DNA of 64,000 nt from Candidatus Pacearchaeota archaeon. Lineage in GTDB: Archaea; Nanobdellota; Nanobdellia; Pacearchaeales; GW2011-AR1. A program made the translations under genes and the position numbers. Where the stretch lies: NCBI GenBank assembly GCA_016181885.1, contig JACOYJ010000001.1, positions 2,792-66,791 on the forward strand, in the 5' to 3' direction. The notes under the pieces are model-generated. The model made no database searches, was not told the DNA's origin, and worked only from the letters and a program-made list of their open reading frames with translations. Below, piece after piece: positions 13,886 to 52,466 of the stretch (its first letter is position 1; every line of letters starts with the position of its first letter).

Positions 13886-13894
13886 GCGTATAAA

Positions 13895-23927: not shown

Positions 23928-25187
23928 TTATTGTTTTCTGATTCCTTTAGAATTTTTTTTAATAAGATAGTTTACTGGATTTTTTAGCTTGAGTTCGTCC
24001 TCTGTCGGCACTGCCCCTATGGCGGCATAATAATCTTTATCATAATTTGGGGGAAGTATTGTCTTGTTCCTATAAGCCCATGCAAGCTGTGCCTGAATGT
24101 AGCCTTTAAGCAACGGAACTTTATTTTTCTTATTCCATTCTTCTATTCTTTTTTCCAGCTCGTCTTTTTCAACACCTATTGCCCTAAAGAAATTTATCAA
24201 AACAAAAAGCGCCCTTTTTCTTCCATCACCAACCCCTAAAAGAATTGTTTTAATTGATGGCGGAAAATGGGTGTCAGAAAGATTTTCAAATTTAATTGGC
24301 TGGAAATCTCTTTGATGTTTCTCGCTGTTTTCTTTAGGAGCGTGTTCTTTATACCAATCCAGCGCCTGAACCAGGAGTTCTGATGCTTCGCCTTTTTTTA
24401 CTTCAGGAATAAAATTCCTGATATTTATTTTCATTGGGTCAGCGCTTTTTAAATCAAAATCATCAAGCTCTTTTGGCAGAATTACTACACTAGCGAGGGC
24501 AGTCTTTTCATGGAGGGAATATGGAGCTCTAAAAAGATGCCTTGGAGCAACTAAAACCAAATCCGGGATTACCTCTTTGGAAGCCTGAAAATTCCTTACA
24601 TATTTGCCCGGTTTTTCCAAATTTGAAATTTCCTTGACTAAATCTTTTTCTATTGTTGAATTAATGTATTTCAGGATTATTCTGGGCCATTCCGGAAACA
24701 TCGATGCTGTTTTAACGCCGTTGACTTCTTTCGGAAAAGCCTGCCAAGGAATTATCAAATGGAACCCTTTGCTTCCGGAGAATTTTATTCCAATGTTTTT
24801 TACGCCGTGGAAGTTAAGGGTTTTTAATATCAGCTTCGCCATTACTTTGCTGTAATCGGCATATTTTGAGTCAATGTCTATAATCAAATCCCAGCCAATT
24901 CTCAAATCGCGAATTTTTTGCTCTGGAAGATTTAATTCAAGCTTGAGGGGGTCTTCCCACAATTCTTCAGAGCAGTGAAAAGAAGTCGCGCCTTTTTTAG
25001 CCAATTCAAAAACATCGCTTTGATATTGCAGAGCATCTGGGCGCTTGCCAAAGCCTTCAAAATATCTCGGAACTGTCTCCCTATTGTTAGAAAAAGAAAA
25101 AATTGCTTTCTGAATTTCCGAGCGGGAATAATATAGTGAAGTTATCTTTCTTATTCTCTGCTCTTTTATGCTTTCCTCTTCCCCCAT
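23928..25187 (-). CDS. priS: DNA primase, PriS-type catalytic subunit with an extra C-terminal helical domain
   Basis: GWDLIIDIDS (DxD), FSGSKGFHLIIPW, RAPYSLHEKT. The C-terminal about 120 aa (GDGRKRALFVLINFFRAIG...) is helical and lacks the Fe-S cysteines. Confidence 0.8.
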   Translation of the reverse strand: MGEEESIKEQRIRKITSLYYSRSEIQKAIFSFSNNRETVPRYFEGFGKRPDALQYQSDVFELAKKGATSFHCSEELWEDPLKLELNLPEQKIRDLRIGWDLIIDIDSKYADYSKVMAKLILKTLNFHGVKNIGIKFSGSKGFHLIIPWQAFPKEVNGVKTASMFPEWPRIILKYINSTIEKDLVKEISNLEKPGKYVRNFQASKEVIPDLVLVAPRHLFRAPYSLHEKTALASVVILPKELDDFDLKSADPMKINIRNFIPEVKKGEASELLVQALDWYKEHAPKENSEKHQRDFQPIKFENLSDTHFPPSIKTILLGVGDGRKRALFVLINFFRAIGVEKDELEKRIEEWNKKNKVPLLKGYIQAQLAWAYRNKTILPPNYDKDYYAAIGAVPTEDELKLKNPVNYLIKKNSKGIRKQ

Positions 25188-25271
25188 GGGAAAAAATGCA
25201 AAGCCCTCTTTAAATAATTACCTTATTTTCATCATAACAATACTTAAAAACGAAGCACTCTCTTGAATAAT

Positions 25272-26009
25272 ATGCTGCTTAAATTAGACAATCCAAGCCT
25301 GCTTTTAAAAGGAGTTGATATGATTTCAGAGCTAGTTACTGAAGTTAAAATAAAGTTCAACGATTACGGACTTTCAATAACTGCAATGGACCCTGCGAAT
25401 GTTTCTATGGTTGGATTCAAGCTTCCAAAAAGCGCTTTCAGCCAGTTTGAAAGTGAAAATACCACTATTGGGATAAATCTTGATAGTTTTAAAAAAATAC
25501 TTAAGAGAGCAGGACCCGGGAGCTCGATGATAATTGAAAGAAAGGAAAATTTGTTAGGAATACAAATACAGGACAAGATAAAAAGAAGTTTTGACTTAAG
25601 CCTTATAGATATAGAATCTGAAGACATTGACTTTGACGCTAAAGTTGGCAGGATGGAATTTACTTCTAAAGTCGAGCTGGATTCTATAGACTTCATTGAT
25701 GTTATAGAGGATGCTATTGTTGTCTCTGATGCCTGCGCTTTTATCGTTGACAATGGAAAATTTATAATTGAGGCTAAGGGCTTGAATTCTGCAAGGGCTG
25801 AGTTTTCCAGCGACGAAGCGAAAATAAATGCTGAAAACTGCAAAGCGAGATACAGCCTTGAATATTTGCAGAAATTCTTAAAAGGAGCAAAGGTCTGCGA
25901 TAAAACACTTATTTCTTTCGCTGACGACCATCCCTTGAAGCTTGACTTTAACTCTTCTGGAATGCAGATAAGTTTTGTTTTGGCGCCACGCGTAGAAACA
26001 GAAGACTAA
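25272..26009 (+). CDS. pcn: DNA polymerase sliding clamp PCNA
   Basis: About 245 aa; ...DYGLSITAMDPANVSMV..., ends ISFVLAPRVETED like archaeal PCNAs (LLAPRVEE). The track start at 25263 is TTG; the ATG is at 25272. Confidence 0.88.
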   Translation: MLLKLDNPSLLLKGVDMISELVTEVKIKFNDYGLSITAMDPANVSMVGFKLPKSAFSQFESENTTIGINLDSFKKILKRAGPGSSMIIERKENLLGIQIQDKIKRSFDLSLIDIESEDIDFDAKVGRMEFTSKVELDSIDFIDVIEDAIVVSDACAFIVDNGKFIIEAKGLNSARAEFSSDEAKINAENCKARYSLEYLQKFLKGAKVCDKTLISFADDHPLKLDFNSSGMQISFVLAPRVETED

Positions 26010-26191: not shown

Positions 26192-26344
26192 ATGAAAGAA
26201 AGGGTCTCGGCAACAATAGATAAAGAAACTTCTAAAATAATTGATGAAATGTTAAAAAAAGGAAATTATAGAAATAAATCCCATGTCATAGAGGACGCTA
26301 TTAAAATATTAAAAGAGGTTAAAAATGGAAAACAAAACAAATAA
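26192..26344 (+). CDS. Ribbon-helix-helix (CopG/Arc-like) protein, 50 aa
   Basis: Own translation: MKERVSATIDKETSKIIDEMLKKGNYRNKSHVIEDAIKILKEVKNGKQNK*. Overlaps the first gene of the pilin-like locus by 20 nt. Confidence 0.6.
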   Translation: MKERVSATIDKETSKIIDEMLKKGNYRNKSHVIEDAIKILKEVKNGKQNK

Positions 26345-27116
26345 GAAATCTCAAATAACTATCTTCGTAATCGCCGGGATATTAATTGTTGCAATAGTTT
26401 TATTGTTCTTTTTCCTTAAATCAAAGGGAGATGAGCCCGAACGGGGAGCGACTTCCCCTGAATCTATCCTTGAAACTTGCCTTAAGCAAGATGTTTATGA
26501 TGCTCTTCAAGTTATTGGAGAACACGGCGGAGATGACAACCCTGAATTAGGTTTATCTTTCAGGTTTGAAAACGAACCTGCTGTAAAGATAGCATACTTG
26601 TGCTACACTTCTAAAGACCGCGAACCATGCACAAACCAAGAGCCCTTGTTATTCTGGAAAGTAGAGAGAGAAATGGAAAGCTATCTAAATGATACTATTA
26701 ATTACTGTGTTGATGCTATGGGAAAAAGTCTTGAAAAAAAAGGGTATGCTGTTGATATAAGATACTTTCGTGGAGATTTTGAAATTGATATTAATGAAAA
26801 CGGAATTGATATAAAGATAAATGCGGATATGACTCTCTCTAAAAACAATCAAAATAAAGTAAAAAAAGGACTTAAAGCTGTATTCAAAACAAAGTTTTAT
26901 GATTTAATTTACACTTCACGAAGGATAATTTATGACGAGAGAGTGAGCTGCAGCTTTGACATAGCCAGTTATGTCGGGAAATATCCTGATTTTTCCATTG
27001 ATAGAGAGATAACATTGTCTCCCGACTTCTCCAAAATTTATACTGTTAAGACTAAAAATTCGCCTGAGATTTTCAGGTTTGCTGTAAGAAGCTGCGTAGA
27101 TCAGCCAGGAGCTTAA
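26325..27116 (+). CDS. Pilin-like (class III signal) protein A1, paralog of 30691..31476
   Basis: N-terminus NKKSQITIFVIAGILIVAIVLLFFFL. Shares YLCYT...C..Q.P and the C-terminal F.FA.RS....PG with A2. Confidence 0.65.
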   Translation: MENKTNKKSQITIFVIAGILIVAIVLLFFFLKSKGDEPERGATSPESILETCLKQDVYDALQVIGEHGGDDNPELGLSFRFENEPAVKIAYLCYTSKDREPCTNQEPLLFWKVEREMESYLNDTINYCVDAMGKSLEKKGYAVDIRYFRGDFEIDINENGIDIKINADMTLSKNNQNKVKKGLKAVFKTKFYDLIYTSRRIIYDERVSCSFDIASYVGKYPDFSIDREITLSPDFSKIYTVKTKNSPEIFRFAVRSCVDQPGA

Positions 27117-27117
27117 A

Positions 27118-30100
27118 ATGAGAAATAAAAATAATTGCAAAATTAATGGAGTGTTAAAGATTTTATTAGTTTTATGGATGTTAATGATTGCTGGAACAAT
27201 CAGCGAGAATATTCATAAAAATTATAAAATGGAAAGCAAAACATTAAATTCTCCACTAAACCAAGCAAATTATAATCCTATATTAAATAAAATAAACATT
27301 ATAATTAATTTTTTATCAATAAGACAAATTTCAGTTGTCAGCGCAGCAGAAGTTTGCTGTGAAAAGGTTTCTGGAGGAGGATGGTGTCTTGATACTGAAG
27401 ATGGATGGTGTTCTCCCGGCTCTCCAAAATCAAGATGCGAGATATATGGACCGAACGGACAGCTAAAGGGAAAATGGAGTGAAAATCCAGGACCAGAATG
27501 CGAGCCTGGTTGTTGTGGTTTGTATGAAAACACAAAATACACGACAAGAAAAGCGTGCGAGATATTATCTGGAGATTTTAAAGATTCTGTGAGTGAAGAA
27601 AACTGCAAATTTTTAACGACAGAATTTGGAGCATGCATAATTCCTGGAGGTTGTATGTGGGCAACAAACGAAAAATGTTATGGGGTTGGAGATTTAGGTG
27701 GAATTGATTTCAAAAAAGGAGTTTATTGTTCTAATGAAGGGTTAGAAACTGAGTATGGATATAACTATGTACCGAACTCATCAAAGTTATGTTATGATGG
27801 AGATGTTTATTGGCAAGATAATAATGCAAACATGGAAGGAATTGCAGAAGATTGCAAAGAAGGAGAGGAGACATGCGATATAAATAGCGTTGGAGAATAC
27901 TATTGCAAAAGCACAAGCTGTGTTTATGAAGGGAAAAAGAGAGTCGATAAAGAAAGCTGGTGCGTGTATGATGCTTATGTTGGAGACAGCAGAGATTATC
28001 CTGGAAGCGAGCATTTCAAATTCTATTGTGATAATGGAGAGGTGAAAGTGGAAACAAATCCGGGAGAGCATAGAAATATGATATGCGCAGAAAATGTTGA
28101 CCCCGTTACCGGAATTTCAACAGCACAGCTAAGAGATAATTTATGGAAAGAATGTTTTTTGATAGACAATGCTGCTGAATGCAACAACCATCCTGATTGT
28201 CGTTTGCATAGCGTTTATGTCGATACTTACTTTAAGTTTGATGCGTGTGTTCCAAAATATCCTCCAGGGTTTGATATTTATTCTGAAAAACCTCAAGAGA
28301 ACGGAGAAGCTATATGCGGGTTGGCTAACATTGATTGTCTTCAAGTGTGGGATGATGACAGCACCAGTGATAACGACCTTGAAGCAAACGGAAGATGTGA
28401 TGACCCTAGCTATTATTTGCTGCAAATGCATAGTTTTTGCGCTTCTTTAGGAGATTGCGGAAGCTCATTTAACTATAAAGGAAATTATACTTATAGCAAT
28501 AAAGAAGGCTCATGGAGCGCGCTTTATTTTGCGGAAAGGGTGTGTAATGATATTGTGCGTGAATATGAGGCAAGAAGCGGAAATGGGATAACATCAGATT
28601 GGAGCACTACACTGCCAGATTTGAATATTAAAATACCAGGTCGGAATGTAATAATACCTAGTTCTGGTTTAAATACAAACATATTTGATTTAGATAAAAG
28701 AAATTATAATGCCTGCCTTGGCTTTTTAGCTGACTTTGAAAAGAGCAAAGATAAATTTAGTGTTACTGGAGGAGTTTATCCTGAGTGGATTAGAAATGCT
28801 CAAAGAAGAAGTGATGGAGATATAACATCAATTGAACTTATAAACAGCTTGATAGCAGGACGGGGAGAGGCTGTAGGAAATAAGTATTGGGAAGACCAAG
28901 GGATAAGTGATGGCGCGGCGGGAGCACCGGATATTTATTATGAGCCTTATTCATTCACTTGCGCTCCGTCGAGACCTCCTGTTGGAGGAGGTGAGTGTTA
29001 CAAGTGCAATGACAATCCTCTAATAAAATGCACTAATTATAGATGTAATAGTTTAGGAGGAGCCTGCGAGATTTTGGGAGAGACAAAAGACACTGATAAT
29101 CCTCTTTGTGTAGATAGATTTGGCTATAGAACTGACCTTATTCCTCCGCAAATATCTTTTGGAACAATATCGCCTGATTATAGAGTAACTCCTGGAGCGG
29201 ACGGAGTTTCTATTTCTCTTGCAGATGGAACATGCTCTGAAAAATACAGCAATGTTTCATTTACTCTTAATACAGACGAGAATGCAAAATGCTACACTTC
29301 AGAAGACAAATCAACACTTTTAGAAAATTTGGAAGATGGGCATGATTACAACACAACTCATTTTATTGAAAAAAACTTGGGAATCGATAATAAATTAAGA
29401 TTATTCACTATATGCCAGGATGTAAACGGAAATCCAAATACTAAAGAGTATATTGTAGACATATGCGTAAGCCCGCAGCCTGACCATAAAGCTCCAGAAA
29501 TAAGAAGATTTATTCCTGAAAGCGGAAGCTATTTACCTTTTGGAGAGACAAAAAGAATTGTAACTTTAAAAATAAATGAGCCTGCAGTATGCAGATATGC
29601 TAAGACTCCTTATGTGCCTATTGAAAGCATGAGCTATTTATGTGAAACTGATGACGAAGGAATTGGGCCTTACTCCTGCACAGCAGAAATTGAAGATTTG
29701 ACAAGTCCTCAAAACGACATTTATATAAGATGCAATGATACTCTTGGAAATTTCCATCAATCAGATATACTTTACACATTATTCCAAACAAGAGAAGCAT
29801 TAAAAATAGAGATAGTATCGCCTCTAAGCGGCAGTATAAGAGAAACTCCAATCAGCGCAAGTAATCCTTTGATATTAGAAGTAAAAACTTCAAAAGGAGC
29901 TTATAATGGCGATTCTATATGCAGTTACAAATTCTTAGAACAGGGATGGGGAGCAGAATTTTTTGAGACTGGTTTAAAAAAACATAGGCAGGAATTTAGC
30001 ACCGGAGCGCTTGTAAATGGCTATTACAATATTAAAGTGAAATGTGAAGATGCAGCCGGCAATAAAGCAGAGACCATAGTAAGCTTCTCAATCAATATAG

Positions 30101-30663
30101 ATAAAGAACCTCCAGTTATAATCAACAAAAGTGTTTCCGGAACAACTATGACTTTGGCTACAGACGAACCTGCCGAATGTGTTTATAATACAACATCATG
30201 CAATTATTTATTTAGAGATGCTTTAAAAAACGATATCAGCTACGGAAGAACGACAACTCATAAAATATATGACTTCAGCAAGAGAATCGATTACTATGTT
30301 AGATGCATGGATGAATTCGGCAATGAGGATTGCACTGCTATATGGGCAACTGAAAAGAATGATGGACTGCCTCCTGAAGCTGTGAGGGTATTTTATGACA
30401 GTGATGAAACTGGAGACTTAAAATTAATAACTGATGAAGATGCGCAGTGCAGATACAAAACTTCAACCTGCAGTTTTAACTTTGAGGAAGGCCAAGAAAT
30501 GAGCAGAGGGTATTCTCAAAACAGCGAATATTCCAGAGAACATTATGCTCCTTGGAATTTAAACACCAAATACCACATTAAATGCAAAGACAGCTGGGGC
30601 AATGTTAACACGGGATGCTTAATAATTGTTGAACCAATTAAAATAGCAGAGATAGAAGGATAA
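27118..30663 (+). CDS. Giant Cys-rich secreted protein B1 (1181 aa)
   Basis: N-terminal hydrophobic anchor. The N-terminal half is homologous to 32102..33676 and the C-terminal half to the C-terminal part of 34392..36638. Contains five repeats of about 100 aa. Confidence 0.75.
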   Translation: MRNKNNCKINGVLKILLVLWMLMIAGTISENIHKNYKMESKTLNSPLNQANYNPILNKINIIINFLSIRQISVVSAAEVCCEKVSGGGWCLDTEDGWCSPGSPKSRCEIYGPNGQLKGKWSENPGPECEPGCCGLYENTKYTTRKACEILSGDFKDSVSEENCKFLTTEFGACIIPGGCMWATNEKCYGVGDLGGIDFKKGVYCSNEGLETEYGYNYVPNSSKLCYDGDVYWQDNNANMEGIAEDCKEGEETCDINSVGEYYCKSTSCVYEGKKRVDKESWCVYDAYVGDSRDYPGSEHFKFYCDNGEVKVETNPGEHRNMICAENVDPVTGISTAQLRDNLWKECFLIDNAAECNNHPDCRLHSVYVDTYFKFDACVPKYPPGFDIYSEKPQENGEAICGLANIDCLQVWDDDSTSDNDLEANGRCDDPSYYLLQMHSFCASLGDCGSSFNYKGNYTYSNKEGSWSALYFAERVCNDIVREYEARSGNGITSDWSTTLPDLNIKIPGRNVIIPSSGLNTNIFDLDKRNYNACLGFLADFEKSKDKFSVTGGVYPEWIRNAQRRSDGDITSIELINSLIAGRGEAVGNKYWEDQGISDGAAGAPDIYYEPYSFTCAPSRPPVGGGECYKCNDNPLIKCTNYRCNSLGGACEILGETKDTDNPLCVDRFGYRTDLIPPQISFGTISPDYRVTPGADGVSISLADGTCSEKYSNVSFTLNTDENAKCYTSEDKSTLLENLEDGHDYNTTHFIEKNLGIDNKLRLFTICQDVNGNPNTKEYIVDICVSPQPDHKAPEIRRFIPESGSYLPFGETKRIVTLKINEPAVCRYAKTPYVPIESMSYLCETDDEGIGPYSCTAEIEDLTSPQNDIYIRCNDTLGNFHQSDILYTLFQTREALKIEIVSPLSGSIRETPISASNPLILEVKTSKGAYNGDSICSYKFLEQGWGAEFFETGLKKHRQEFSTGALVNGYYNIKVKCEDAAGNKAETIVSFSINIDKEPPVIINKSVSGTTMTLATDEPAECVYNTTSCNYLFRDALKNDISYGRTTTHKIYDFSKRIDYYVRCMDEFGNEDCTAIWATEKNDGLPPEAVRVFYDSDETGDLKLITDEDAQCRYKTSTCSFNFEEGQEMSRGYSQNSEYSREHYAPWNLNTKYHIKCKDSWGNVNTGCLIIVEPIKIAEIEG

Positions 30664-30690
30664 TTTATAAAATAATATAACGTTATAAAA

Positions 30691-31476
30691 ATGGTGAAAA
30701 AAATGGGTGAAAAAATCTCGCAAAGAGGGCAAGTCACATTATTTATAATCTTGGCTATAATAATAATTGCGCTTGGCTTATTAATTTACTTTTTATTTCC
30801 AAAAATAAAAACAAGCCTTGGATTTCAGGAAGAAAGCCCTTACCAATATTTAGAAGGATGCCTTGACAAAAATTATCTGCAGGACAAAATAAATGAAATT
30901 TCTCTGCAAGGCGGCTCTTTGAACCCCGAACATTATTTAGTTTATAATGGAAAAAATTTAGAGTATCTATGCTACACGAATAAATATTATGAGTCTTGCA
31001 TTGTTCAGCAGCCTTTCCTAAAGAGACATGTTGAAACTGAAATAGAAAATATTATCAGAGAAAATGCGAATGATTGTTTTGCTCAATTGGAAAATGAATA
31101 TAAAGACAAGGGATACGAAACGAGCTCGCGAAAAGGCGGGGTTGAAGTTGAATTGCTGCCAAAAAGGATTATATTCAAATTCAACAGCACATTGACTATT
31201 TCTAAGGACGGAAACTCTGAAAATTTCAATTTATTTAGAGTAGTTTTGAACAATAATCTTTATGAATTAGTTGCGATTGCTAGCAGCATAGTGGAGGGAG
31301 AAACTCTCTTCGGAGATATTGAAACAACTTATTACATGAGCTTATATCCAGAATTAAAAGTTGAGAAAAAAATTCAGACAGACGGCTCGACAGTTTACAT
31401 ATTAACTGACAGAAACACTGAAAATAAATTCCAGTTCGCATCTAGAAGCATGGCGTGGCCTCCCGGGTATGGATAA
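30691..31476 (+). CDS. Pilin-like (class III signal) protein A2
   Basis: N-terminus ISQRGQVTLFIILAIIIIALGLLIYFLF; paralog of A1. Confidence 0.65.
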   Translation: MVKKMGEKISQRGQVTLFIILAIIIIALGLLIYFLFPKIKTSLGFQEESPYQYLEGCLDKNYLQDKINEISLQGGSLNPEHYLVYNGKNLEYLCYTNKYYESCIVQQPFLKRHVETEIENIIRENANDCFAQLENEYKDKGYETSSRKGGVEVELLPKRIIFKFNSTLTISKDGNSENFNLFRVVLNNNLYELVAIASSIVEGETLFGDIETTYYMSLYPELKVEKKIQTDGSTVYILTDRNTENKFQFASRSMAWPPGYG

Positions 31477-31813
31477 GATGAAAAATATAATTCATAAAAT
31501 AAAAGAATCTTTTAATGAAAGAAATAGAGGTGGAACTCAGATGATAATATTATTATCAGCAACTGTTTTGTTTGTTGGAACACAAGTGTATGGCATGGTT
31601 TCTGCTCCAAATATAAAAGTTGCTCGTGAATTTGATTATTGCGGTAAAAAGGCTAAGATAATTGTCGAAGAAAGAAAACTGATTTATAATAGCGGATATG
31701 TTTTATTAAATGACAATGATGTAGTTAGAGGCACTTTAATAAGTGACAATGGTGATACAATAACCACGAGTATTGATGGATACACAATTAACGGTGAGCT
31801 TAAAAGATGGTAA
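31469..31813 (+). CDS. Hypothetical small protein with an N-terminal hydrophobic helix (possibly pilin-like)
   Basis: NRGGTQMIILLSATVLFVGTQVYG; overlaps both neighbouring genes. Confidence 0.45.
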   Translation: MDKMKNIIHKIKESFNERNRGGTQMIILLSATVLFVGTQVYGMVSAPNIKVAREFDYCGKKAKIIVEERKLIYNSGYVLLNDNDVVRGTLISDNGDTITTSIDGYTINGELKRW

Positions 31814-32115
31814 TTAAAAATAAAAATTTGGACTCAAAGACAATAATAAGGAAAATAGAAGAAAATAAAAAATCTCTCCAGAAATGGGGGGTTAAAAAGA
31901 TTGGCCTATTTGGCTCTTTTTTAAATGGAAAACCCACTAAAAGAAGCGACATAGACGTTTTGATCGTCTTAGAAAAGCCTGGCTTTGATAATTACATAGA
32001 GCTTAAACTCATGTTAGAGAGAATGTTCAAAAGAAAGATAGACCTTGTTATAGAAGAAGATTTAAGACCTGAATTAAAATACGTGAGAAAAGAGGCGAAA
32101 TATGCGAGATTATAA
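31807..32115 (+). CDS. Minimal nucleotidyltransferase (MNT-type, type VII antitoxin-like)
   Basis: GLFGSFLNGKPTKRSDIDVLIV is a GS..RG....SD.D motif. No HEPN partner is adjacent. Confidence 0.7.
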   Translation: MVIKNKNLDSKTIIRKIEENKKSLQKWGVKKIGLFGSFLNGKPTKRSDIDVLIVLEKPGFDNYIELKLMLERMFKRKIDLVIEEDLRPELKYVRKEAKYARL

Positions 32116-33676
32116 AATTTATTTAATTTTAGGAATTACAATAATTTTCTTTATTGGAATTCTGCCTTTAATAAATCCAGTCGGCGAGAAGAGATTTTGC
32201 TGCGAGAAAACAACTGAGGGAGCCTGGTGCATGGATGTCAAGGAAGAAAGCCAGTGCGCGACAGGCGCAAACTTAAATGTTCCTGTGCCGACTCCCTGCC
32301 AGGCAACTTCTTACTGCAAACTTGGATGGTGTTATGACAGCCAGCAAGGAACTTGCATGCCTAATGTTCCTCAAAAATTATGCAGCGCAAATCAAGGAAC
32401 CTGGAGTTCTGGAAGCGAGGCTCCCCCGCAATGCTCTTTAGGATGCTGTACTCTCGGAGACCAGGCAGCTTTTGTCACGCAAGTCACTTGCAAGAGAATG
32501 TCTGCTCTTTATGGAATTGAAACTGACTTCAGCACAGAATTTTCTAATGAACTTGAATGCATTGCATCAGTCACTTCTGAGGATAAAGGAGCGTGTGTAT
32601 TTGAAAAAGAATACGAAAAAACATGCCAGTTCTTGACGCAAAGAGAATGCGCGACACTTGGAACAAGCGAACAAAATGTTGAATTTCACAAAGGGATTTT
32701 GTGTTCTGCTGAAGAACTTGGAACAAATTGCGGACCTACAAAAAAAACAACTTGCGTTGAAGGAAAGGATGGAGTTTATTTTGTAGATTCCTGCGGAAAT
32801 GTTGCAAATATTTACGACGCTGATAAAGAGAAAGATAAAGATTATTGGAAAAGAGTTTATGATGCAGATGAAAGCTGCAATCCCGGCTCAAGCAACGCTG
32901 GTTCTGCTAAATGCGGGAATTGCGATTATTATTCGGGAAGCAATTGCAAACCTTATCAAAGAAGCGTTGATGGAGTAAGGCCAAATTTAGGAGAGAATAT
33001 TTGCAGGGATTTGGCCTGTGATTATCAAGGCACGAGATATGACCATGGAGAAACTTGGTGCGTAAGCAATACAAACAAGGGAAAAAATATTCCTGGAAGC
33101 GAGTATTTCAGATTTGTGTGCTATGATTCTGAGATAACTGTTGAACCTTGCGATGCATTCAGGCAAAGCATTTGCGTGGAGGAAAATGACAACGGATTTT
33201 CATATGCAAGATGCTCTGCAAACTTATGGAGAGATTGCATTGCGCAAGATAATCAATTAGATTGTGAGAATACTGACAAAAGAGACTGCAGGTGGATGGC
33301 TCACGACAAAGAGGATAATGGAGATTTAATATTTGCGTGCGTTCCAAAATTCTCTCCGGGATTTGACTTCTGGGGCTCAACAGAAGATGTTGAAACAGTT
33401 TCTGAAGGAGAAGGAATTTGCGCTATATCAAACACTGAATGCGTTTCCACTTTCACTAAAGGCTTGACTGGGGGGAAATGGGAGTGCCAGTCAAATTGCG
33501 GCTGCTGCCTTAATGATGATGAACATGAAGGATGTGATGGAGATGAATGGGCATCTAACAAAGTAAATCTCTGCAATGCTCTTGGAGACTGCGGAAACAA
33601 AATAAATTATATTGGAAATAAAGGATATCCAAACCGAACTGTAATTACTAGGGACGGGAAGGTGACTTCAAAATAA
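32102..33676 (+). CDS. Cys-rich secreted protein B2N (524 aa), homolog of the N-terminal half of B1
   Basis: CCEKTTEGAWC / GSEYFRFVCYD / ACVPKFSPGFD / CNALGDCGNKINY align with CCEKVSGGGWC / GSEHFKFYCDN / ACVPKYPPGFD / CASLGDCGSSFNY of B1. Confidence 0.75.
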   Translation: MRDYKIYLILGITIIFFIGILPLINPVGEKRFCCEKTTEGAWCMDVKEESQCATGANLNVPVPTPCQATSYCKLGWCYDSQQGTCMPNVPQKLCSANQGTWSSGSEAPPQCSLGCCTLGDQAAFVTQVTCKRMSALYGIETDFSTEFSNELECIASVTSEDKGACVFEKEYEKTCQFLTQRECATLGTSEQNVEFHKGILCSAEELGTNCGPTKKTTCVEGKDGVYFVDSCGNVANIYDADKEKDKDYWKRVYDADESCNPGSSNAGSAKCGNCDYYSGSNCKPYQRSVDGVRPNLGENICRDLACDYQGTRYDHGETWCVSNTNKGKNIPGSEYFRFVCYDSEITVEPCDAFRQSICVEENDNGFSYARCSANLWRDCIAQDNQLDCENTDKRDCRWMAHDKEDNGDLIFACVPKFSPGFDFWGSTEDVETVSEGEGICAISNTECVSTFTKGLTGGKWECQSNCGCCLNDDEHEGCDGDEWASNKVNLCNALGDCGNKINYIGNKGYPNRTVITRDGKVTSK

Positions 33677-33714
33677 AATGTTAAAACAAATTAATTCAAT
33701 GTTAAGGGAGATGG

Positions 33715-33830
33715 ATAATAATAATAATAATCTTCATGATGGTAAATGCTTAATAAAATTAAATTTTGAGGACGGCGATTCCTCACAAAACTTAAAAGAT
33801 TGGGTATTTTCGCCGTTGATGTAATGAAAG
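33715..33830 (+). repeat. Intergenic repeat family, fragment D (includes an AAT microsatellite)
   Basis: About 75 nt are near-identical (2 mismatches by eye) to the reverse complement of 46251..46330. Weaker similarity continues into the start of the next gene. Confidence 0.85.
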
Positions 33831-34306
33831 CAAAAAAAATTATATTAACTGGACTGGCTGGGTTAATCATTGGATGCGGCATAACAAACAGAGAACTAGT
33901 GCCTGCAATAAATTTTGGAGTTCCAAGGGAAGAAAACTACAAAGCAAGTTTTTTTGTCGGGAAAGAATGGTACGACAGAAATAAAAACAATTCCATGGAC
34001 AAAAGCGACGGGTATTACAATCCTGAAGTTTTCAAAGGAAAAGAACCGATAGTGGTAATTGCGGAGATTGAGGGATACAATGGAAATTTAACGACAAAGA
34101 TATGGAATAGCAAAACAGGAAATGTGGTAAAAACTGCAAGAAGAGAGATTCATGGCAAGACATTGATTCAATATAATTTTACAGCAGAAGACATAATGAA
34201 AAATCAGTTTGGAGGAGATGGTAATTACAATGTTGCATGGTATATTGGAGAGGGTGTTGATAGTGAAAGAATAGAAGAAAGAGGATTTAAAATAAAAAAT
34301 GAATAA
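33824..34306 (+). CDS. Putative lipoprotein (160 aa)
   Basis: MKAKKIILTGLAGLIIGCG has a lipobox-like IIGC. The track start at 33800 is TTG; the ATG is at 33824. Confidence 0.55.
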   Translation: MKAKKIILTGLAGLIIGCGITNRELVPAINFGVPREENYKASFFVGKEWYDRNKNNSMDKSDGYYNPEVFKGKEPIVVIAEIEGYNGNLTTKIWNSKTGNVVKTARREIHGKTLIQYNFTAEDIMKNQFGGDGNYNVAWYIGEGVDSERIEERGFKIKNE

Positions 34307-34391
34307 GAAAAAAATTATTTTAATTTGAGACGGTAGTTCAAGATGTTAGAAAAGTTTGTTCAGAAAATTAGAACAGGGGGGCTGAGATAAA

Positions 34392-36638
34392 ATGGCTAAA
34401 AAATTAAGCTCAATAAAAACGCTTTCAATATTTGAAATATTTATTTTAGTTTTGGGGGTTGTTGCAGTTGGGTATGCTATCGGGAGCAGTATTGGAGAGG
34501 TGAGTGCGCCAAGTCCTAGTGAAACCGATGAAGTTGATGAGATGGGGCAAGGAGCAACTTCTAAGGGAGCGCCGGTAGCAGCTACTGCAGTCGCCGGAGT
34601 ACAAGCAATTGGAAAAAAGGGATTGAACATTATTAAAGAACTAGTTCCTGGCTTGAAAAAGAGATCAGCGGTTGGTGGCTTGAAAACTGTTGTTGGTGAT
34701 GGAATTAAAGAAGGTTTGTTTAAACAAGTAGTTGGATCTGTTTGGCAAGTCGGAGTTAATGCAGTAGTTGCTTACGGTTTTGTTCAGGCTGTAAGATTAT
34801 TTGGACCTCTTATTGGTCTGGATAAATCTACAACTGCTGCTGCAGCAAAAGCTGTAGGATGGGGATATTTTGCTGAAAGAACCTCATTCGATTTATTAGT
34901 CAAAGAAGGAGGCCCAAGATTGTTAGGAAAAAAATTTGCAGAAGTCCTAGGTGGAAAAGTTTTAGGACCAATCACGGGAGCAGGACTAATTGGATTAGGT
35001 CTTGCCGTTGTTATATTCTTATTATCATACAAACGTTCACAAGAGCAAAGAGTCAGCTTTGCGTGTTATCAATGGGATGCGCCAACTGGAGGGGCAAATT
35101 GCGAGAAATGCAACCAGCAAGGATTAATTCCATGCACGCCATATCAATGCAAATCACTTGGACAGGGATGCGAATTTATAGATCAAGGAGATGAATCTTT
35201 ATGCGTTTGGCAAAATAGAAATGACCCCAGGCCTCCGACAATACAGCCTTGGCCTGATGCGCTTCCTAATGCAGATTACAGATATAAGCCAGATACAGCA
35301 ATAAGGCCTCCGGAAAGAGGAGTTTACATAACTTATAATGGCGAGAGAAGAGACGAAAAAGGATGCATTCCGCCTTTCACCAAATTCAGCTTCGGAATAA
35401 CTATTGTCGGCGGCGGAGTAGATAATAAACCAGAGCCGGCGGTTTGCAAGATAGATACAGAAAGAAAACAAGGATTCGATGAAATGATGGACTATTTCGG
35501 GCAAAACTCTAATAAAAGATATAACCATACACAAATGATGAATTTGCCAAGCAAAGAATCTTTGGAAGCTGAAGGATTGACTGTTGTAAATAATGGGGAG
35601 AGTCAATTGTTTGTAAGATGCCAGGATGTTAACGGAAATTTCAACACAGAAAATTTTGTCTTCAAGTATTGCGTCCAGCAAGGCCCGGATTTGATGGCGC
35701 CGGAAATTCTTGGAACAAGCATAGAAAACAACGCTTACATAGGATATAACACCTCTTCAACTCCCCTGACTCTTTACATGAATGAGCCGTCAGAATGCAG
35801 ATGGAATTATGATAGAGACATGAGTTTTGATGAAATGCCTAAAAACATGACGTGCTCTAAAAGTGTTTATGAAATGGGCTCGGATATGACTTATCCTTGT
35901 TCAACAACTCTTGATGGATTAAAGAGCCAGGCAATAAATGCATTTTATTTTAGATGCAAAGACAAGCCATGGACGCCAAAAGAAGGAGAACAAAGAATTG
36001 AGATGTCTCAAGGATACAGGTTCACTTTAATTGGAACCCAGCCTTTAGTAATTACAGATGTTGGACCAACAAGAACTATAAAAGATTCTACTGAAAATGT
36101 TAAAGTAACTTTGACTGCTGAGACTTTTGCTGGAGCAAACCAGGGAGCAGCGCAATGTTTTTACAGCGAATCGTGTTTTGACGAAGCTGGCTCAAAAGAA
36201 CTTTTAACTTCTTTCGCTTATGAAGACGAATTGTACACCGCTCATACTCACTCCCAAGATATAAGGCCTGGAGCTGGAACTTTCAATTGTGTGATCTTAT
36301 GCCAAGACGCCGGGGGAAATTACGACGAGAAAGAATTTAGTTATAGTGTTGAAGTTGATTTCACTGCTCCTGAAGTTGTAAGGGCTTACAAAGATGAGAA
36401 TTCATTAACAATAGTAACTAACGAAAAAGGGGAATGTGTTTACGGAACGCAGGAATGCACTTACTTATACGAAGATGGCTTGTCGATGAGCTCGTTCGAC
36501 GGAACAGACCACCATACTCCATGGAATGCGCAGACAACCTATTATATAAAATGCGCCGATGATTATGGAAACCCGCCATCACCAAATGAATGCTCAATAA
36601 TTGTAAAGCCGTTTGAGCTGTACATCGATGAACAATAA
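34392..36638 (+). CDS. Membrane-anchored Cys-rich protein B2C (748 aa), homolog of the C-terminal half of B1
   Basis: The N-terminal about 220 aa has three hydrophobic segments and is Ala/Gly/Val-rich. From FACYQWDAP.GGANCEKCN onward it aligns with FTCAPSRPPVGGGECYKCN... of B1, including CQDVNGNFNT and YYIKCADDYGN. Confidence 0.75.
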   Translation: MAKKLSSIKTLSIFEIFILVLGVVAVGYAIGSSIGEVSAPSPSETDEVDEMGQGATSKGAPVAATAVAGVQAIGKKGLNIIKELVPGLKKRSAVGGLKTVVGDGIKEGLFKQVVGSVWQVGVNAVVAYGFVQAVRLFGPLIGLDKSTTAAAAKAVGWGYFAERTSFDLLVKEGGPRLLGKKFAEVLGGKVLGPITGAGLIGLGLAVVIFLLSYKRSQEQRVSFACYQWDAPTGGANCEKCNQQGLIPCTPYQCKSLGQGCEFIDQGDESLCVWQNRNDPRPPTIQPWPDALPNADYRYKPDTAIRPPERGVYITYNGERRDEKGCIPPFTKFSFGITIVGGGVDNKPEPAVCKIDTERKQGFDEMMDYFGQNSNKRYNHTQMMNLPSKESLEAEGLTVVNNGESQLFVRCQDVNGNFNTENFVFKYCVQQGPDLMAPEILGTSIENNAYIGYNTSSTPLTLYMNEPSECRWNYDRDMSFDEMPKNMTCSKSVYEMGSDMTYPCSTTLDGLKSQAINAFYFRCKDKPWTPKEGEQRIEMSQGYRFTLIGTQPLVITDVGPTRTIKDSTENVKVTLTAETFAGANQGAAQCFYSESCFDEAGSKELLTSFAYEDELYTAHTHSQDIRPGAGTFNCVILCQDAGGNYDEKEFSYSVEVDFTAPEVVRAYKDENSLTIVTNEKGECVYGTQECTYLYEDGLSMSSFDGTDHHTPWNAQTTYYIKCADDYGNPPSPNECSIIVKPFELYIDEQ

Positions 36639-36780: not shown

Positions 36781-36931
36781 TACGATTTATCAATAATTAT
36801 GAATCATTATTTTTAGAGTAAATAAATTAAGGCATAATATTAGAATAGATCGATAAAGATCAGATAAACAAAAGGGTATTCAAATTAATCCTAATCCATA
36901 TATAACGAGCTTGCGAACATTATTCTGTAAG

Positions 36932-37101
36932 GTAAACCAACAATCTTAACATAAAAAATTACTCACTCATGTCATCGTGCATTTTATTATTAACATTAAT
37001 GGCAAATCTGCGAATGAAATGAGCAGGTAATTATCTTTATTGTTTGTGGGTTATTGAACGAATTTAACCATGGAATGTTGAGTTATGAACCTGGCTTAAC
37101 A
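36932..37101 (+). repeat. Intergenic repeat family, short copy B (about 170 bp)
   Basis: Aligns with 13895..14064 and with both ends of the reverse complement of 45951..46408. Confidence 0.85.
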
Positions 37102-37142: not shown

Positions 37143-37637
37143 ATGGAAATAATGGGGCGTAATTCGCAAATGCAGCTATCATTTGGCATGATTTTCTCTA
37201 TAATATTAATTATCTTTTTTCTTGCTTTTGCGTTTTTTGGGATAAAGATTTTTCTGGGGGCGAGCGATAATGCGAGAAATGCGCAGTTTGTCAAAAATCT
37301 GCAGAATGATATTGACGATTTATGGAAATCTCCCCAGGGCTCACAGGAGAAAGTTTATGATGTGTCCTCAAAAATAGAAGAGATATGCTTTATAGAAGAT
37401 GATTATGAAAATATTGTTTTTCTTCCTCCAGAATCAGAGGAACTGCCTCCAATAATTATAAAAAATATAGATATTGGCAACATAACAAGGTCTGGCGGTT
37501 CTGAGATGAAAGATTTTCCTATAGCGGACGATTATCCAAGAATATTAAGGGCTTTGTGCTTTGGCATTGTCGACGAAGAAATAGAACTGATTTTAAGGAA
37601 AGACTTCGGAAAAGATTTGGTGTTGATACAGAAATGA
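37143..37637 (+). CDS. Pilin-like (class III signal) protein, 164 aa
   Basis: GRNSQMQLSFGMIFSIILIIFFLAFAFFG. Confidence 0.6.
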   Translation: MEIMGRNSQMQLSFGMIFSIILIIFFLAFAFFGIKIFLGASDNARNAQFVKNLQNDIDDLWKSPQGSQEKVYDVSSKIEEICFIEDDYENIVFLPPESEELPPIIIKNIDIGNITRSGGSEMKDFPIADDYPRILRALCFGIVDEEIELILRKDFGKDLVLIQK

Positions 37638-37996: not shown

Positions 37997-38932
37997 ATGG
38001 AAAAAAGAATGGGTTTTATGCAATTGTCTTTCGCTTGGATTTTTGCACTCATAGTTGGAGCCTTCATATTGTTTCTTTCAATTTATATTGCAATAAAGTT
38101 CAGCGGAATTGAGGAAAAAAAACAGGATGTTGTTGTCAGCAAAGAGCTTGGAATTCTGCTGAATCCTCTTGAAAGCGGATTTGAGCAGGCAAGAACGGCA
38201 AAAATTGAACTCCAGAAAAAAACACGAATACAAAATAGATGTGAAAAAGAAGAGCCGTTCGGCAGGCAGGTGATTTCGGTTTCAGAAGAGACATTCGGGA
38301 AGTGGTCAGCTAATGGAAGCGAGGCTGGCTTTTTGAACAAGTATATTTTTTCAGACAAGCTTTTAGAGGGGAATAATTTCTATCTCTTTTCAATGCAATT
38401 TGAGTTTCCCTTCAAAATTGCAGACTTGATTGTGATGACTTCGGCAGATAAGATTTATTGTTTTGTTGACGCTCCTGAAGAAGTGCAGGAAAAAATAAGA
38501 GGGCTGAAATTAGATAATGTTTTAAATAAATCTGCAGGCTCACAATGCCCTCATGGAAGCAAAAAAGTCTGTTTCAGCGGAAATTGCGATATAACCATAA
38601 ATAAGAATCTTGGAAAAGTCACAAAAAGAAACGAAGACTCTGTTGAGTTTTACGGAGATGCTTTAATGTATTCTGCTATTTTCTCCGACAATGAAATTTA
38701 TGAATGCCAGTTTAAGAGACTGATGCAGAGAACAAAACAGCTTGCATCTTTGTATAATCAAAAAGCAACGTTCATAAATAGATATGGATGCTCAACAAAT
38801 CTTCCTCTAGCATCCTTAATAAATCTTGCGGATAATTTTGAAAATTCGCGGGACTTGTCTGGAGCATTGCTTGGAGTTGTTGATGAAATTAAAACAAGAA
38901 ATGAAGAGAATCAGGCGTGCAGGCTATGGTGA
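37997..38932 (+). CDS. Pilin-like (class III signal) protein, 311 aa
   Basis: KRMGFMQLSFAWIFALIVGAFILFLSIYIAI; shares the MQLSF motif with the 37143 gene. Confidence 0.6.
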   Translation: MEKRMGFMQLSFAWIFALIVGAFILFLSIYIAIKFSGIEEKKQDVVVSKELGILLNPLESGFEQARTAKIELQKKTRIQNRCEKEEPFGRQVISVSEETFGKWSANGSEAGFLNKYIFSDKLLEGNNFYLFSMQFEFPFKIADLIVMTSADKIYCFVDAPEEVQEKIRGLKLDNVLNKSAGSQCPHGSKKVCFSGNCDITINKNLGKVTKRNEDSVEFYGDALMYSAIFSDNEIYECQFKRLMQRTKQLASLYNQKATFINRYGCSTNLPLASLINLADNFENSRDLSGALLGVVDEIKTRNEENQACRLW

Positions 38933-38935
38933 AAA

Positions 38936-39295
38936 ATGGCAAATGACAATAAATTAGTTGATGAATATGAAAAACTGCAGAATTTAAAAAATGAATTAGA
39001 TGTAAAAATTGAAGAATTAAAAAAAGAGATTGTTAATCTTGCCAGAGAAAAAAATACTGATATGCTGCTTGGAACCAGCAAAAAATGCTCGATAAGGGAA
39101 TACATTAAAGTAATTTATCCGGAGAACAAAACCAGAATTATAGAGTTAATTAAAGAAAAGGGGCTTTATGAAAAATTTTCTTCAATTAATTATTTTAAAT
39201 TGGGGCCGGCAATAGTTAAAGGAAACATTGATTATGACATACAAAATTTAGTTAGAAAAGAGAAGGCATTTAGGCTTTCTTTACTGGATATTTAA
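38936..39295 (+). CDS. Hypothetical coiled-coil protein (no signal peptide)
   Basis: 119-aa ORF, tightly packed between neighbours. Confidence 0.45.
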   Translation: MANDNKLVDEYEKLQNLKNELDVKIEELKKEIVNLAREKNTDMLLGTSKKCSIREYIKVIYPENKTRIIELIKEKGLYEKFSSINYFKLGPAIVKGNIDYDIQNLVRKEKAFRLSLLDI

Positions 39296-39297
39296 AA

Positions 39298-39717
39298 ATG
39301 AAGATAAAATACGTTTATCATGGGAGTTCAAAAAAATTGAATATTCTAAAAACTAAAAGGGCAAAAGGAGGGATATTAAAAGACAAATTAAATGGAGTTT
39401 ACGCAACACATGAAATGAAAAGCGCGATAATGATGGGCTTATTATCGGGAAAAGGAATTAAAGGGTCAAGTTTTCATGAAACTAATAATAAAATGCATGG
39501 AATAATTTATCGGGGTGGTTTAAAAAATCGTGTTTTTTATGTTTATTTTCTGTCTCCAAAAACTTTCAAGAAGATTGATTCATGGCAGTGGGTTTCAAAG
39601 GAAGAAGTTAAACCTATTAAGGTAAAAAAATTATTTATTAAAGATTATAAAAGTTGGATAAGAAAGGCAACGAAAGAAGAGAAAGAAAGATGGTTAAAAA
39701 AATATGAGAATAAATAA
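39298..39717 (+). CDS. Hypothetical basic protein (no signal peptide)
   Basis: 139-aa ORF, Lys-rich. Confidence 0.45.
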   Translation: MKIKYVYHGSSKKLNILKTKRAKGGILKDKLNGVYATHEMKSAIMMGLLSGKGIKGSSFHETNNKMHGIIYRGGLKNRVFYVYFLSPKTFKKIDSWQWVSKEEVKPIKVKKLFIKDYKSWIRKATKEEKERWLKKYENK

Positions 39718-40231
39718 AATAAGGGGACAAATGAAAATACAGCAGACTGCATTCATGCTTTTAGCTGTGACTTTGTTTTTTGCGCTGGTTGGACTGGCCT
39801 TCGTGAGTTTCCAGCTTTCTGGAATAAAAGAATCAGCTGCAGATTTGGAGGAAAAAAATGCGAGGCTTTTGGTTTCGAAGCTTGCGAATTCTCCCGAGTT
39901 CTCCTGCGGGGAAGCGTTTGGGACAGCTGGAGCTTCCTGCGTGGATTTAGACAAGGTAATGAAATTGAAAGAAAATGAAGCAACTTATTCTGGGTTTTGG
40001 GGTGTTTCTGAAATTAATGTTAGAAAGATTTATCCGAAAATGACTGAAGAGGTTATATGCACGCCTGCCATCTATCCAAATTGCAACTTGATTCAAATAA
40101 GAGCTGGCGGAAGGGGCGGGACTTTTGTTCCAAATTACGTTTCACTTTGCAGGAAAGCTTCTGAAGAAGGAAGACTTTATGATAAATGTGAACTTGGATT
40201 GTTAATGGTTAGTTACGAGGTTAGAAAATGA
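39704..40231 (+). CDS. Pilin-like (class III signal) protein, 175 aa
   Basis: NKIRGQMKIQQTAFMLLAVTLFFALVGLAFVSF. Confidence 0.6.
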   Translation: MRINKIRGQMKIQQTAFMLLAVTLFFALVGLAFVSFQLSGIKESAADLEEKNARLLVSKLANSPEFSCGEAFGTAGASCVDLDKVMKLKENEATYSGFWGVSEINVRKIYPKMTEEVICTPAIYPNCNLIQIRAGGRGGTFVPNYVSLCRKASEEGRLYDKCELGLLMVSYEVRK

Positions 40232-40830: not shown

Positions 40831-41180
40831 ACCCTAAAGTGGACTGTTATTGTATCTACAACAACTACCGGCCTTAGACGCCTGCGTTTTTTTGTGGATT
40901 CTGGCAGAAACTCGACAAAGCCGAATCTCTCAAGCAGTTTTACATCATCACTTACTGACTTAAAGTTTCTGCCTAATTTCTTGGCCAGTTCATATATGGA
41001 TTTGGGTTTTTCGTACTTTATTATATGGAGGATTCTGGCTTTTTCATTGTTCAAAAGCTGCCTTAAAACGTGAATTCCCTCAAAATCAAAGGATTCTTTA
41101 GATGAAAAGGGGTTTTTAAAAATAGAGAAAGTTCCCTTTGACTCTGTAATTGTTATTTCCCGGGTTTTTGTCCTTGCCAT
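40827..41180 (-). CDS. Winged-helix transcriptional regulator (ArsR/MarR-like)
   Basis: ARILHIIKYEKPKSIYELAKKLGRNFKSVSDDVKLLERFGFVEF is an HTH plus wing. Confidence 0.6.
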   Translation of the reverse strand: MARTKTREITITESKGTFSIFKNPFSSKESFDFEGIHVLRQLLNNEKARILHIIKYEKPKSIYELAKKLGRNFKSVSDDVKLLERFGFVEFLPESTKKRRRLRPVVVVDTITVHFRV

Positions 41181-46408: not shown

Positions 46409-46478
46409 TTTGTATTAAGGTAGGTGAGATAATCCAAGCGAGTTAAAATTAATGTAAAAAATCCATGAATTGGCTAAT

Positions 46479-52465: not shown

Positions 52466-52466
52466 T

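Follow-up and report, generated by a model that had tools for sequence, protein, structure and literature searches.

Was a giant protein that is one chain in one copy of a duplicated gene pair and two genes in the other broken recently, broken long ago, or joined from two parts? The question is raised by a 64,000-nucleotide (nt) stretch of a Candidatus Pacearchaeota archaeon contig (JACOYJ010000001.1), called the window below, in which a small gene, A, and a giant gene, B, occur twice in tandem. Module 1 consists of A1 and the single-chain B1 and module 2 of A2 and the separate genes B2N and B2C, followed by genes for four conserved small proteins, W164, W311, W175, and W200 (Table 1). The original prediction described either a gene fission driven by insertions or a fusion, captured within this one locus. 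Our overall reading, which we consider likely, is that of a conserved surface operon with an ancient A-B duplication, in which the B protein of module 2 has been split recurrently and was inherited in its split form here, and for which a pilus-tip-like or envelope-attached function is inferred.

A1 and A2 are clear paralogs, as originally proposed (BLASTP E = 3e-29, 30% identity over 220 amino acids [aa]), and a profile-profile comparison of the two families gave a probability of 100% with an E value of 3e-92. The two halves of B1 also align with the two module-2 genes from the positions first given for them: residues 88-462 of B1 (nt ~27379-28504) with residues 75-512 of B2N (E = 2e-38, 29% identity) and residues 612-1069 of B1 (from nt ~28951) with residues 222-727 of B2C (from nt 35055; E = 4e-42, 28% identity), with a further segment at E = 3e-17. 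These pairwise E values are far past anything due to mere cysteine composition. In neighbor-joining (NJ) trees, which were built on very divergent sequences, the N-domains of B2N-type proteins (BN) and those of single-chain B proteins of the first module (position 1) form separate groups, as do the C-domains of B2C-type (BC) and position-1 proteins. The bipartition between position-1 and position-2 B proteins has 100% bootstrap support in a concatenated alignment. Because the paralog clades are separated at 100% bootstrap and share only 28-30% identity, the A-B duplication is, judged from these comparisons, ancient and not recent. The number of modules varies: three loci (L004, 1479-9065; L014, 37-9061; and L015) have three B-type single-chain genes, with an extra module upstream.

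The arrangement is found well beyond this genome. One genome per GTDB species was scanned with the N-domain alignment, which gave >548 relatives, and the best 80 loci were kept and classified by open reading frame (ORF) calling and BLASTP. In every one of these 80 with enough flanking sequence, the order is A, single-chain B (Bfull), a second A (A'), BN, a gap, BC, W164, W311, W175, and W200. The relative of B2N is a separate short gene in 80 of 80, with 41-58% identity between B2N and its orthologs. The B1 homologs P0002 and P0014 lie on contigs with an identical order downstream of primase and PCNA (A, a B of ~1150-1200 aa, a second A, a protein of ~550 aa, one of ~700 aa, and four small proteins), and these contigs continue with a divergent HVO_A0114-family gene and an S-layer-like gene. 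B2N matches the ~550-aa proteins at 52% (L001) and 44% (L002), B2C matches the ~700-aa proteins at 44% (L001) and 40% (L002), and the position of A1 is also held by an ortholog in L001 (47%) and L002. Nearly all of the B1 homologs (n = 47) are single chains of 990-1370 aa. A2 is the most highly conserved of the operon proteins, with 1330 homologs, and a third database search with a profile of the whole family added five more sequences only. The two A-B modules and the four small leader-bearing proteins are a conserved operon adjoining PCNA and primase.

B1 consists of a signal, a Cys-rich N-domain (~88-462), a disordered soluble linker (463-566), and a C-half of tandem immunoglobulin (Ig)/fibronectin type III (FN3)-like sandwiches (605-1177). 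B2N has no membrane anchor, and its chain ends 19 aa past the N-domain. B2C carries a leader typical of the family (~1-39, ending in EVSA), a variable spacer, a Gly/Ala-rich hydrophobic block, a strong transmembrane (TM) segment at 189-215, and the tandem Ig-like C-half from residue ~222. An AlphaFold2 model of B1 built from 49 sequences (predicted local distance difference test score [pLDDT], 79.3) has a confident, mostly beta N-domain, a disordered linker, and a confident all-beta C-half. Foldseek relates the C-half to Ig1-Fn2 of PTPdelta (E = 1.6e-13), to protocadherins, and to GhpA fragments (range, 1e-13 to 1e-10), and, in BFVD, to viral FN3/Ig fiber proteins; Pfam gives weak Big_3_3 and Big_13 matches. 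The modeled C-half has a tandem Ig/FN3-like fold, and only the signal peptide and Cys content suggest an extracellular location. Its five or six consecutive beta-sandwiches recall the ectodomains of PTPdelta, protocadherins, and the Aureispira grappling hook GhpA, but the similarity is at the level of fold only (9-14% identity), and the B domains have conserved Cys pairs and follow a membrane block instead of preceding a C-terminal anchor. Since the Foldseek search with full-length B1 is dominated by generic Ig/FN3 repeats, neighbors of the N-domain would stay hidden in it; a PDB sequence-profile search with the N-domain alignment found no relative. The A2 model, from a 60-sequence alignment (pLDDT, 87.6), has an N-terminal TM helix and a two-lobed alpha/beta ectodomain, and the A-family alignment likewise had no relative in the PDB sequence-profile search.

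The TM-rich domain at the N terminus of B2C had been thought to be newly inserted and to have replaced the soluble linker of B1. Neither proposal survives comparison with relatives. B2C has hydrophobic segments at 5-37 and 189-215, and B1 has only its N-terminal one; however, residues ~55-220 of B2C match the middle of the single-chain proteins P0014, P0021, and P0029, and both B2N and B2C are more similar to long single-chain homologs (33-35%) than to B1 (28-29%). Internal hydrophobic segments lie directly before the C-half in most homologs and are absent from B1 and its ten closest relatives; among the position-1 proteins of related loci, 54 of 59 keep the internal TM. The middle region is laid out as a soluble stretch, a Gly/Ala-rich hydrophobic block, a strong TM, a basic motif, and the C-half motif FxCxPWxxPxGG. 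As most relatives have the internal block, the soluble disordered linker of B1 is the derived state, and the distribution indicates that the TM block is ancestral and was lost secondarily in the B1 clade.

The two module-2 proteins also differ in how they begin. BC leaders have basic residues, often a G, and then hAh-S-[QE]-I-hhL...A-[FI]-[SG]-[YF], ending in VSA or VSG. The N terminus of BN is an ordinary signal peptide, with its VSA end directly before CCEKT. A hidden Markov model (HMM) of this leader, built from the first 60 residues of BC proteins and used at a threshold of ≥15 bits, matches the N termini of 46 of 60 Bfull proteins (median, 24.6 bits) but only 1 of 82 BN proteins, none of 133 A proteins, and 1 of 1018 other ORFs. 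In fused B2 proteins it matches the N terminus only, and there is no internal match in any single-chain protein. This distribution of scores places the leader always on the polypeptide with the hydrophobic block and the C-half. The split is evidently not a simple linear cut, given that B2C carries the family leader and B2N a generic signal. A derivation of the BC leader from the internal hydrophobic segment of fused proteins was considered and rejected, as both are present in the same split loci (L002 type) and the HMM never matches internally.

The smaller proteins of the operon share a leader of their own. The motif [KR]-x?-[GAS]-Q with a strongly hydrophobic stretch occurs in 5 of 104 window ORFs, namely, A1, A2, W164, W175, and W200, and W311 carries a variant of it. 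The motifs are kept in orthologs (GQMKLSFGMIF, KGYLQISFAWLF, AQMKIQQMAFML, and AQEEMVGF), and in the A family Q14, F18, and I20 do not vary. Profile comparison links the A and W proteins through their N-terminal 30-80 residues only; for W164 and W311, hhalign gave 94.7% over the N-terminal 82 columns. We take the leaders of A1, A2, and the W proteins to resemble the class III (prepilin) signals of archaea, with Q in the +1 position. Small proteins with a basic N terminus, a small residue and then Q, and a hydrophobic helix recall both archaeal type-4-filament loci and bacterial minor-pilin-PilY1 tip complexes. Here, as in type-4-filament loci, they are encoded beside giant Ig-fold-rich surface proteins, and the four conserved small proteins recall the four minor pilins of PilY1 complexes. 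Large Ig-rich adhesin-like proteins are frequent in archaeal type-4-filament loci (preprint 10.64898/2026.04.22.720090), which makes the pilus analogy a reasonable one, short of proof.

With prepilin-like leaders on A1, A2, and the four W proteins, the operon may build a pilus-tip-like or envelope-attached attachment complex. The B proteins would be exported and adhesin-like, held at the membrane by the hydrophobic block, perhaps with an uncleaved or specially handled leader, with the Cys-rich N-domain distal and probably ligand binding and the Ig-like repeats as a stalk. Each B would be made and would work with a translationally coupled A partner (the A1 stop lies 2 nt upstream of the B1 start). 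In most species, the N-domain of module 2 would be a subunit of its own that is secreted and has to re-associate with B2C or A2 to remain on the cell, and B1, having no anchor, would depend on partners likewise. The function that we infer is that of a secreted Cys-rich domain and a membrane-anchored tandem-Ig adhesin with prepilin-like partners, for which there are no known family matches.

Several results weigh against this view of the function. The locus differs from type-4-filament loci in that it lacks an ATPase, a platform protein, and a prepilin peptidase (no such type IV pilus component was found in the ~40 window ORFs scanned with Pfam), that it matches no pilin family in sequence or fold, and that the B N-domain (~375 aa, >40 Cys) and the A fold are without known relatives. 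Pfam found no pilin or class III signal family in the isolated leaders, and a FlaFind-like pattern matches A2 only. The A2 model has no Foldseek match in the PDB at E ≤ 1e-3, its fold not being pilin-like, and Pfam and NCBIfam gave nothing meaningful for A, B, W164, W311, W175, or W200; no homology supports the proposed function. Furthermore, the final TM of the block is followed by basic residues (YKKES or GKTKK), which would make the Ig-like half cytoplasmic by the positive-inside rule; this conflicts with an extracellular C-half unless the block is a hairpin.

The operon could instead be unrelated to pili, with A, W164, W311, W175, and W200 as ordinary single-pass membrane proteins and B as an S-layer-associated or envelope structural protein or one that inserts into a host membrane via a glycine-zipper-like block. 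The missing pilin family matches, the A2 fold, and the lack of pilus machinery nearby fit this, as do an S-layer-like gene (41568-44201, weak PF05124) that is conserved a short way downstream in every context, an archaeosortase-like gene at 46479-47012, and the Gly/Ala-rich composition of the hydrophobic block. We regard this alternative as a real possibility, short of probable, since the leader motif is common to six operon proteins (in W311 as a variant) and absent from the other ~100 window ORFs and since an invariant Q and F at fixed spacing exceed the needs of a plain TM anchor.

Pacearchaeota are abundant, uncultured archaea with tiny genomes. Their lineage-specific protein modules are mostly membrane or extracellular and without functional prediction (PMC8204110), and a vent-chimney metaproteome paper names nothing but “hypothetical proteins” for Pacearchaeota. 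The locus yields an order-wide conserved surface operon as a testable object, alongside a distinctive leader and two new, confidently modeled folds or domains, namely, the A ectodomain and the Cys-rich N-domain of B.

The history of the split in module 2 was followed through an exhaustive phmmer search with B2N against 1.84 billion representatives, which gave 1339 relatives, 633 of them at E ≤ 1e-30. The best 148 of these 1339 include 102 BN-type proteins that lack a C-half, 26 proteins of position-1 type, and 10 in which a BN-type N-domain and a BC-type C-half are joined in a single chain. Position-2 B thus consists of two genes in about 90% of representatives. Four of the fused proteins (P0177, P0211, P0194, and P0187) were traced to contigs, and all are in position 2, between the second A and W164. 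A universal split in position 2, which holds for the 80 genome loci, was overturned by these 10 single chains. Because single-chain B2 orthologs exist in other genomes, the choice between fission and fusion that the original prediction raised is a genuine evolutionary question in this family; the part of that claim that did not stand is that the event was captured here, as the split is inherited and present in L001, L017, and ~80 genomes.

When rooted, the concatenated tree has fused proteins on its first B2 branches (P0228 with P0196 and then P0251 with P0211; only 58% and 42% bootstrap), and the remaining fused B2 proteins fall among split ones. A clade of all split forms has 0% bootstrap support, and the fused P0187 is paired with the split L073 at 100%, which requires at least two transitions between the fused and split states. 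The BN of L073 corresponds to residues 7-550 of P0187, stopping just short of its internal hydrophobic segment, and the BC corresponds to residues 742-1351; the interval between the two L073 genes is 2.6 kb, with MNT/HEPN-like genes at the break. Across the family, BN tails are 4 to 64 residues long and end variously along a recognizable linker (GY..GYKI.. acidic .. GGLFGLxLILxKLGITGKAV), which would fit independent breaks or erosion after a break.

These comparisons make it moderately likely that a single-chain B was ancestral and that fission has recurred. All single chains of both paralogs have one order with an N-terminal family leader, and the basal B2 branches are fused. The ancient duplication would have given two A-B modules in an operon of the form A-B-A'-B' followed by four small leader-bearing proteins, with each ancestral B a single chain of family leader, disulfide-rich N-domain, short linker, Gly/Ala-rich hydrophobic membrane block, and five or six Ig/FN3-like domains. 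The module-2 chain would then have been broken at the linker that joins its N-domain to the membrane block, probably on more than one occasion and in separate lineages, giving a secreted, anchor-less N-domain protein with a generic signal (B2N) and a membrane-anchored B2C with the family leader, the block, and the Ig-like stalk. The window inherited its two-gene form from an ancestor that it has in common with its nearest relatives. Some observations count against this sequence of events. The basal fused B2 lineages have only the 42-58% bootstrap support given above, and in some split forms BN retains the internal hydrophobic segment while BC has the full leader. Whichever the direction of change, one polypeptide must gain the leader and the other must lose it by decay.

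The reverse order, in which the B family started from the two-gene state and the B1-type and fused B2 single chains are independent fusions, is unlikely. It would account for the split state of about 90% of B2-type representatives and for the fused proteins nested among split forms (P0177, P0187, P0194, P0215, and P0235), and the segment after the N-domain in fused B2 proteins (e.g., KKAGRLGTLSAIIVPLARGASWLVGMAVASG) resembles a decayed signal or leader at the position of the BC leader. However, the order of leader, N-domain, block, and C-half in all position-1 and fused B2 proteins would need a repeated origin, and a plain fusion of BN and BC would leave the generic BN signal, yet the single chains start with the family leader. 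The earliest B2 branches are fused, though weakly supported, and in L002-type loci BN retains the internal segment while BC has its own leader.

The locus resembles gene fission/fusion (“Rosetta stone”) pairs, in which one protein corresponds to two adjacent genes elsewhere, the break is at a domain boundary, and both products are kept under selection. It differs from them in that fused and split orthologs coexist in one archaeal order beside a permanently fused paralog, the break goes with relocation of the family leader, and the junction is an insertion hot spot. Current concepts are not overturned, fission or fusion being ordinary in itself. Close relatives with the same giant protein as one chain or two are a natural experiment, usable for the fission tolerance of multidomain surface proteins, the re-allocation of signal sequences, and intragenic linkers as insertion hot spots. 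A split intein or trans-splicing was also considered and rejected: the B2N tail of 19 aa (family median, 18.5) and the signal-type leader that opens B2C leave no room for intein halves. In L072 (4801-8656), the position-1 B is broken into ORFs of 875 and 387 aa, the first of which has the family leader (25.6 bits); this may reflect a frameshift, an assembly error, or a new fission, in this case of the other paralog.

The gap between BN and BC has a median of 918 bp, exceeds 300 bp in 36 of 53 loci, and reaches 6665 bp, although the junction is tight or overlapping in 17 loci. The A/Bfull, A/BN, W164/W311, W311/W175, and W175/W200 gaps have medians near 0. The BN/BC junction is an insertion hot spot, and the A/BN junction is one to a lesser degree. 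Clusters of gap ORFs include MNT nucleotidyltransferases (22 in total, with 12 at BN/BC and 8 at A/BN), HEPN-like partners of MNT (8), a lipoprotein family (20, with 19 at BN/BC and all on the plus strand), a GT4/MraY-like membrane protein (4), and RelE/AbrB-like pairs; glycosyltransferases, a radical SAM protein, a subtilase, and a phosphatase are encoded in larger gaps. The window lipoprotein belongs to the recurrent family (iterative HMM E = 1.4e-32), of which a member is found at the BN/BC junction in 18 loci. Its signature, MKAKKIILTGLAGLIIGC, is a signal peptide ending in a lipobox Cys, and all 21 family members found have ...G/S-C after a hydrophobic stretch. Neither the lipoprotein nor ORF114 has a meaningful Pfam or NCBIfam match, and ORF114 has a homolog at the A/BN junction in one related locus only (L017).

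The MNT nucleotidyltransferase noted in the original prediction is real (PF01909, 57.7 bits, with the cutoff at 21; E = 1.6e-15; PF18765 also matched). Orthologs at 58-61% lie at the A/BN junction in L005, L023, and L043 with a HEPN-like partner kept, and the L050 MNT likewise has one. No HEPN partner was found beside the window MNT, and there is no room for one, since the MNT gene runs to 32115, past the start of B2N at 32102. The related loci are thus like MNT-HEPN toxin-antitoxin modules in having MNT and then a protein of ~110 aa with an Rx4-6H-like motif; in contrast, the window MNT stands alone, with overlapping stops and starts, inside a surface-protein operon. Fragment D is also a genuine repeat, 97% complementary to its second copy, and this identity indicates that the piece upstream of the lipoprotein gene is recent.

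The break point and, less so, the A'/BN junction have become landing sites for MNT/HEPN cassettes, the lipoprotein family, and glycosyltransferases, which explains the presence in the window of ORF114, the orphan MNT, and the lipoprotein. These extra genes had been proposed as possible drivers of a fission here; they are secondary cargo at two recurrent hot spots. A link between insertions and splitting in general is plausible, as in the P0187/L073 pair, but provides no evidence that such an event took place here. A recent fission in this genome, in which the ORF114, MNT, repeat, and lipoprotein insertions broke B2 and a new TM domain was gained, is highly improbable. The inserted genes are real and window specific or rare, and the 93-nt repeat is 97% identical to its second copy; however, L001 and L017, the nearest relatives, have the split too, as do all 80 loci, BN and BC overlap in L001 without any insert (with ~16 further loci abutting or overlapping likewise), and ORF114 and MNT sit between A2 and B2N, away from the break. 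The separation of B2N and B2C into distinct orthologous lineages predates the divergence of these species, and the TM block is ancestral.

That B2N and B2C are a pseudogene, misassembly, or frameshift product is scarcely credible, for although the contig is metagenome assembled and 33.7-34.4 kb holds a repeat, both ORFs are intact, each with its own signal or leader and start codon, they recur as separate full-length ORFs in ~80 independent assemblies and 102 representative clusters, and nothing is missing between them compared with single-chain homologs; given that recurrence, even a misassembly of 33.7-34.4 kb would be irrelevant to the split.

A bolder view is that the operon is a lineage-defining Pacearchaeota attachment apparatus, with six prepilin-like proteins, two giant disulfide-rich adhesins, a glycine-zipper block and leader serving as an anchoring or host-membrane-inserting device, and an adaptive breakage that releases the receptor-binding N-domain as an exchangeable subunit. 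We hold this as a whole to be decidedly unlikely. If it were true, the fixed linker at which the second adhesin recurrently breaks would also be the site where toxin-antitoxin cassettes and lipoprotein genes are inserted.

Table 1. Genes and repeat of the duplicated A-B locus and its immediate neighbors (window coordinates)
Feature	Position (nt)	Strand	Remarks
Primase	23928-25187		Upstream neighbor of operon
PCNA	25263-26009		Upstream neighbor of operon
A1 (module 1, 263 aa)	26325-27116	+	ORF; leader KKSQITIF..., hydrophobic helix, alpha/beta ectodomain
B1 (module 1, 1181 aa, single chain)	27118-30663	+	ORF
A2 (module 2, 261 aa)	30691-31476	+	ORF; leader RGQVTLF
ORF114, small membrane protein between A2 and B2N	31469-31813	+	Overlaps both flanking genes
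MNT nucleotidyltransferase, antitoxin type, orphan, at A2/B2N junction	31807-32115	+	PF01909
B2N (524 aa)	32102-33676	+	Ordinary Sec-type signal and Cys-rich N-domain (45 Cys)
Fragment D, 93-nt repeat directly upstream of lipoprotein gene	33715-33807	+	Inverted second copy at 46246-46338
Lipoprotein gene, MKAKKIILTGLAGLIIGC...	33824-34306	+	ORF 33800-34306, likely ATG at 33824
B2C (748 aa)	34392-36638	+	ORF
W164, first of four conserved downstream leader-bearing proteins	37143-37637	+	...SQMQLSFGMIF...
W311, conserved downstream protein	37997-38932	+	Related leader, ...GFMQLSFAWIF...
W175, conserved downstream protein	39704-40231	+	...RGQMKIQQTAFML...
W200, conserved downstream protein	40228-40830	+	...KRSQEEMVGF...

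The window is part of a DPANN archaeal (Pacearchaeota) chromosome with ~31-41% guanine plus cytosine, and the ORF map agrees throughout with the positions first reported. B1 is identical to NCBI protein HYT23_00175 of Candidatus Pacearchaeota archaeon, and the true start of W200 is probably internal to the listed ORF. Other archaeal housekeeping neighbors include TruB, an aspartyl/asparaginyl-type tRNA synthetase, and diphthamide synthesis genes. Two additional ORFs of 119 and 139 aa lie between W311 and W175 (38936-39717, plus strand); they are missing from most related loci, with a homolog of the first in L017 only, and mark another small insertion point.

Downstream of the operon, a minus-strand HVO_A0114-family gene (40827-41180) precedes the S-layer-like gene, which is on the plus strand, encodes a protein of 877 aa with a weak S_layer_C match (PF05124, E = 1.4e-4), and is also found downstream of the operon in every related contig examined. 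The archaeosortase-like gene (46479-47012, minus strand), which lies near the S-layer-like gene and ~10 kb downstream of the operon, codes for a membrane protein resembling exosortases and archaeosortases (PF09721, 27.6 bits, with the cutoff at 25.7). The idea that B carries a C-terminal sorting signal of the archaeosortase type was dropped, as B has no C-terminal TM; without such a signal on the B proteins, the substrates of the archaeosortase-like protein are probably other proteins.

An intergenic repeat (part X, 72-155 nt, 85-94% identical) occurs at 13889-14045 (plus), 36928-37081 (plus), and 46340-46414 (minus) and lies upstream of the genes at 14105 and 37143 (W164). At 46.3 kb, the 93-nt copy of fragment D (part Y) adjoins a copy of part X, forming a composite repeat that looks like a mobile promoter or 5' untranslated region module; an Rfam search of the intergenic repeats found no RNA family.

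Elsewhere in the window, a LAGLIDADG/HNH-repeat homing-endonuclease-like ORF (57500-58300, minus) lies directly beside tRNA-Pro(TGG) (57425-57498), and two tandem SPFH/Band-7 paralogs of 352 and 363 aa (51440-53558, minus) have overlapping ORF ends. We also found a second, larger nucleotidyltransferase-domain protein (7485-8312, minus; PF18765/PF01909) and a lamin-tail-domain protein (14612-15340, plus; PF00932, E = 2.8e-15).

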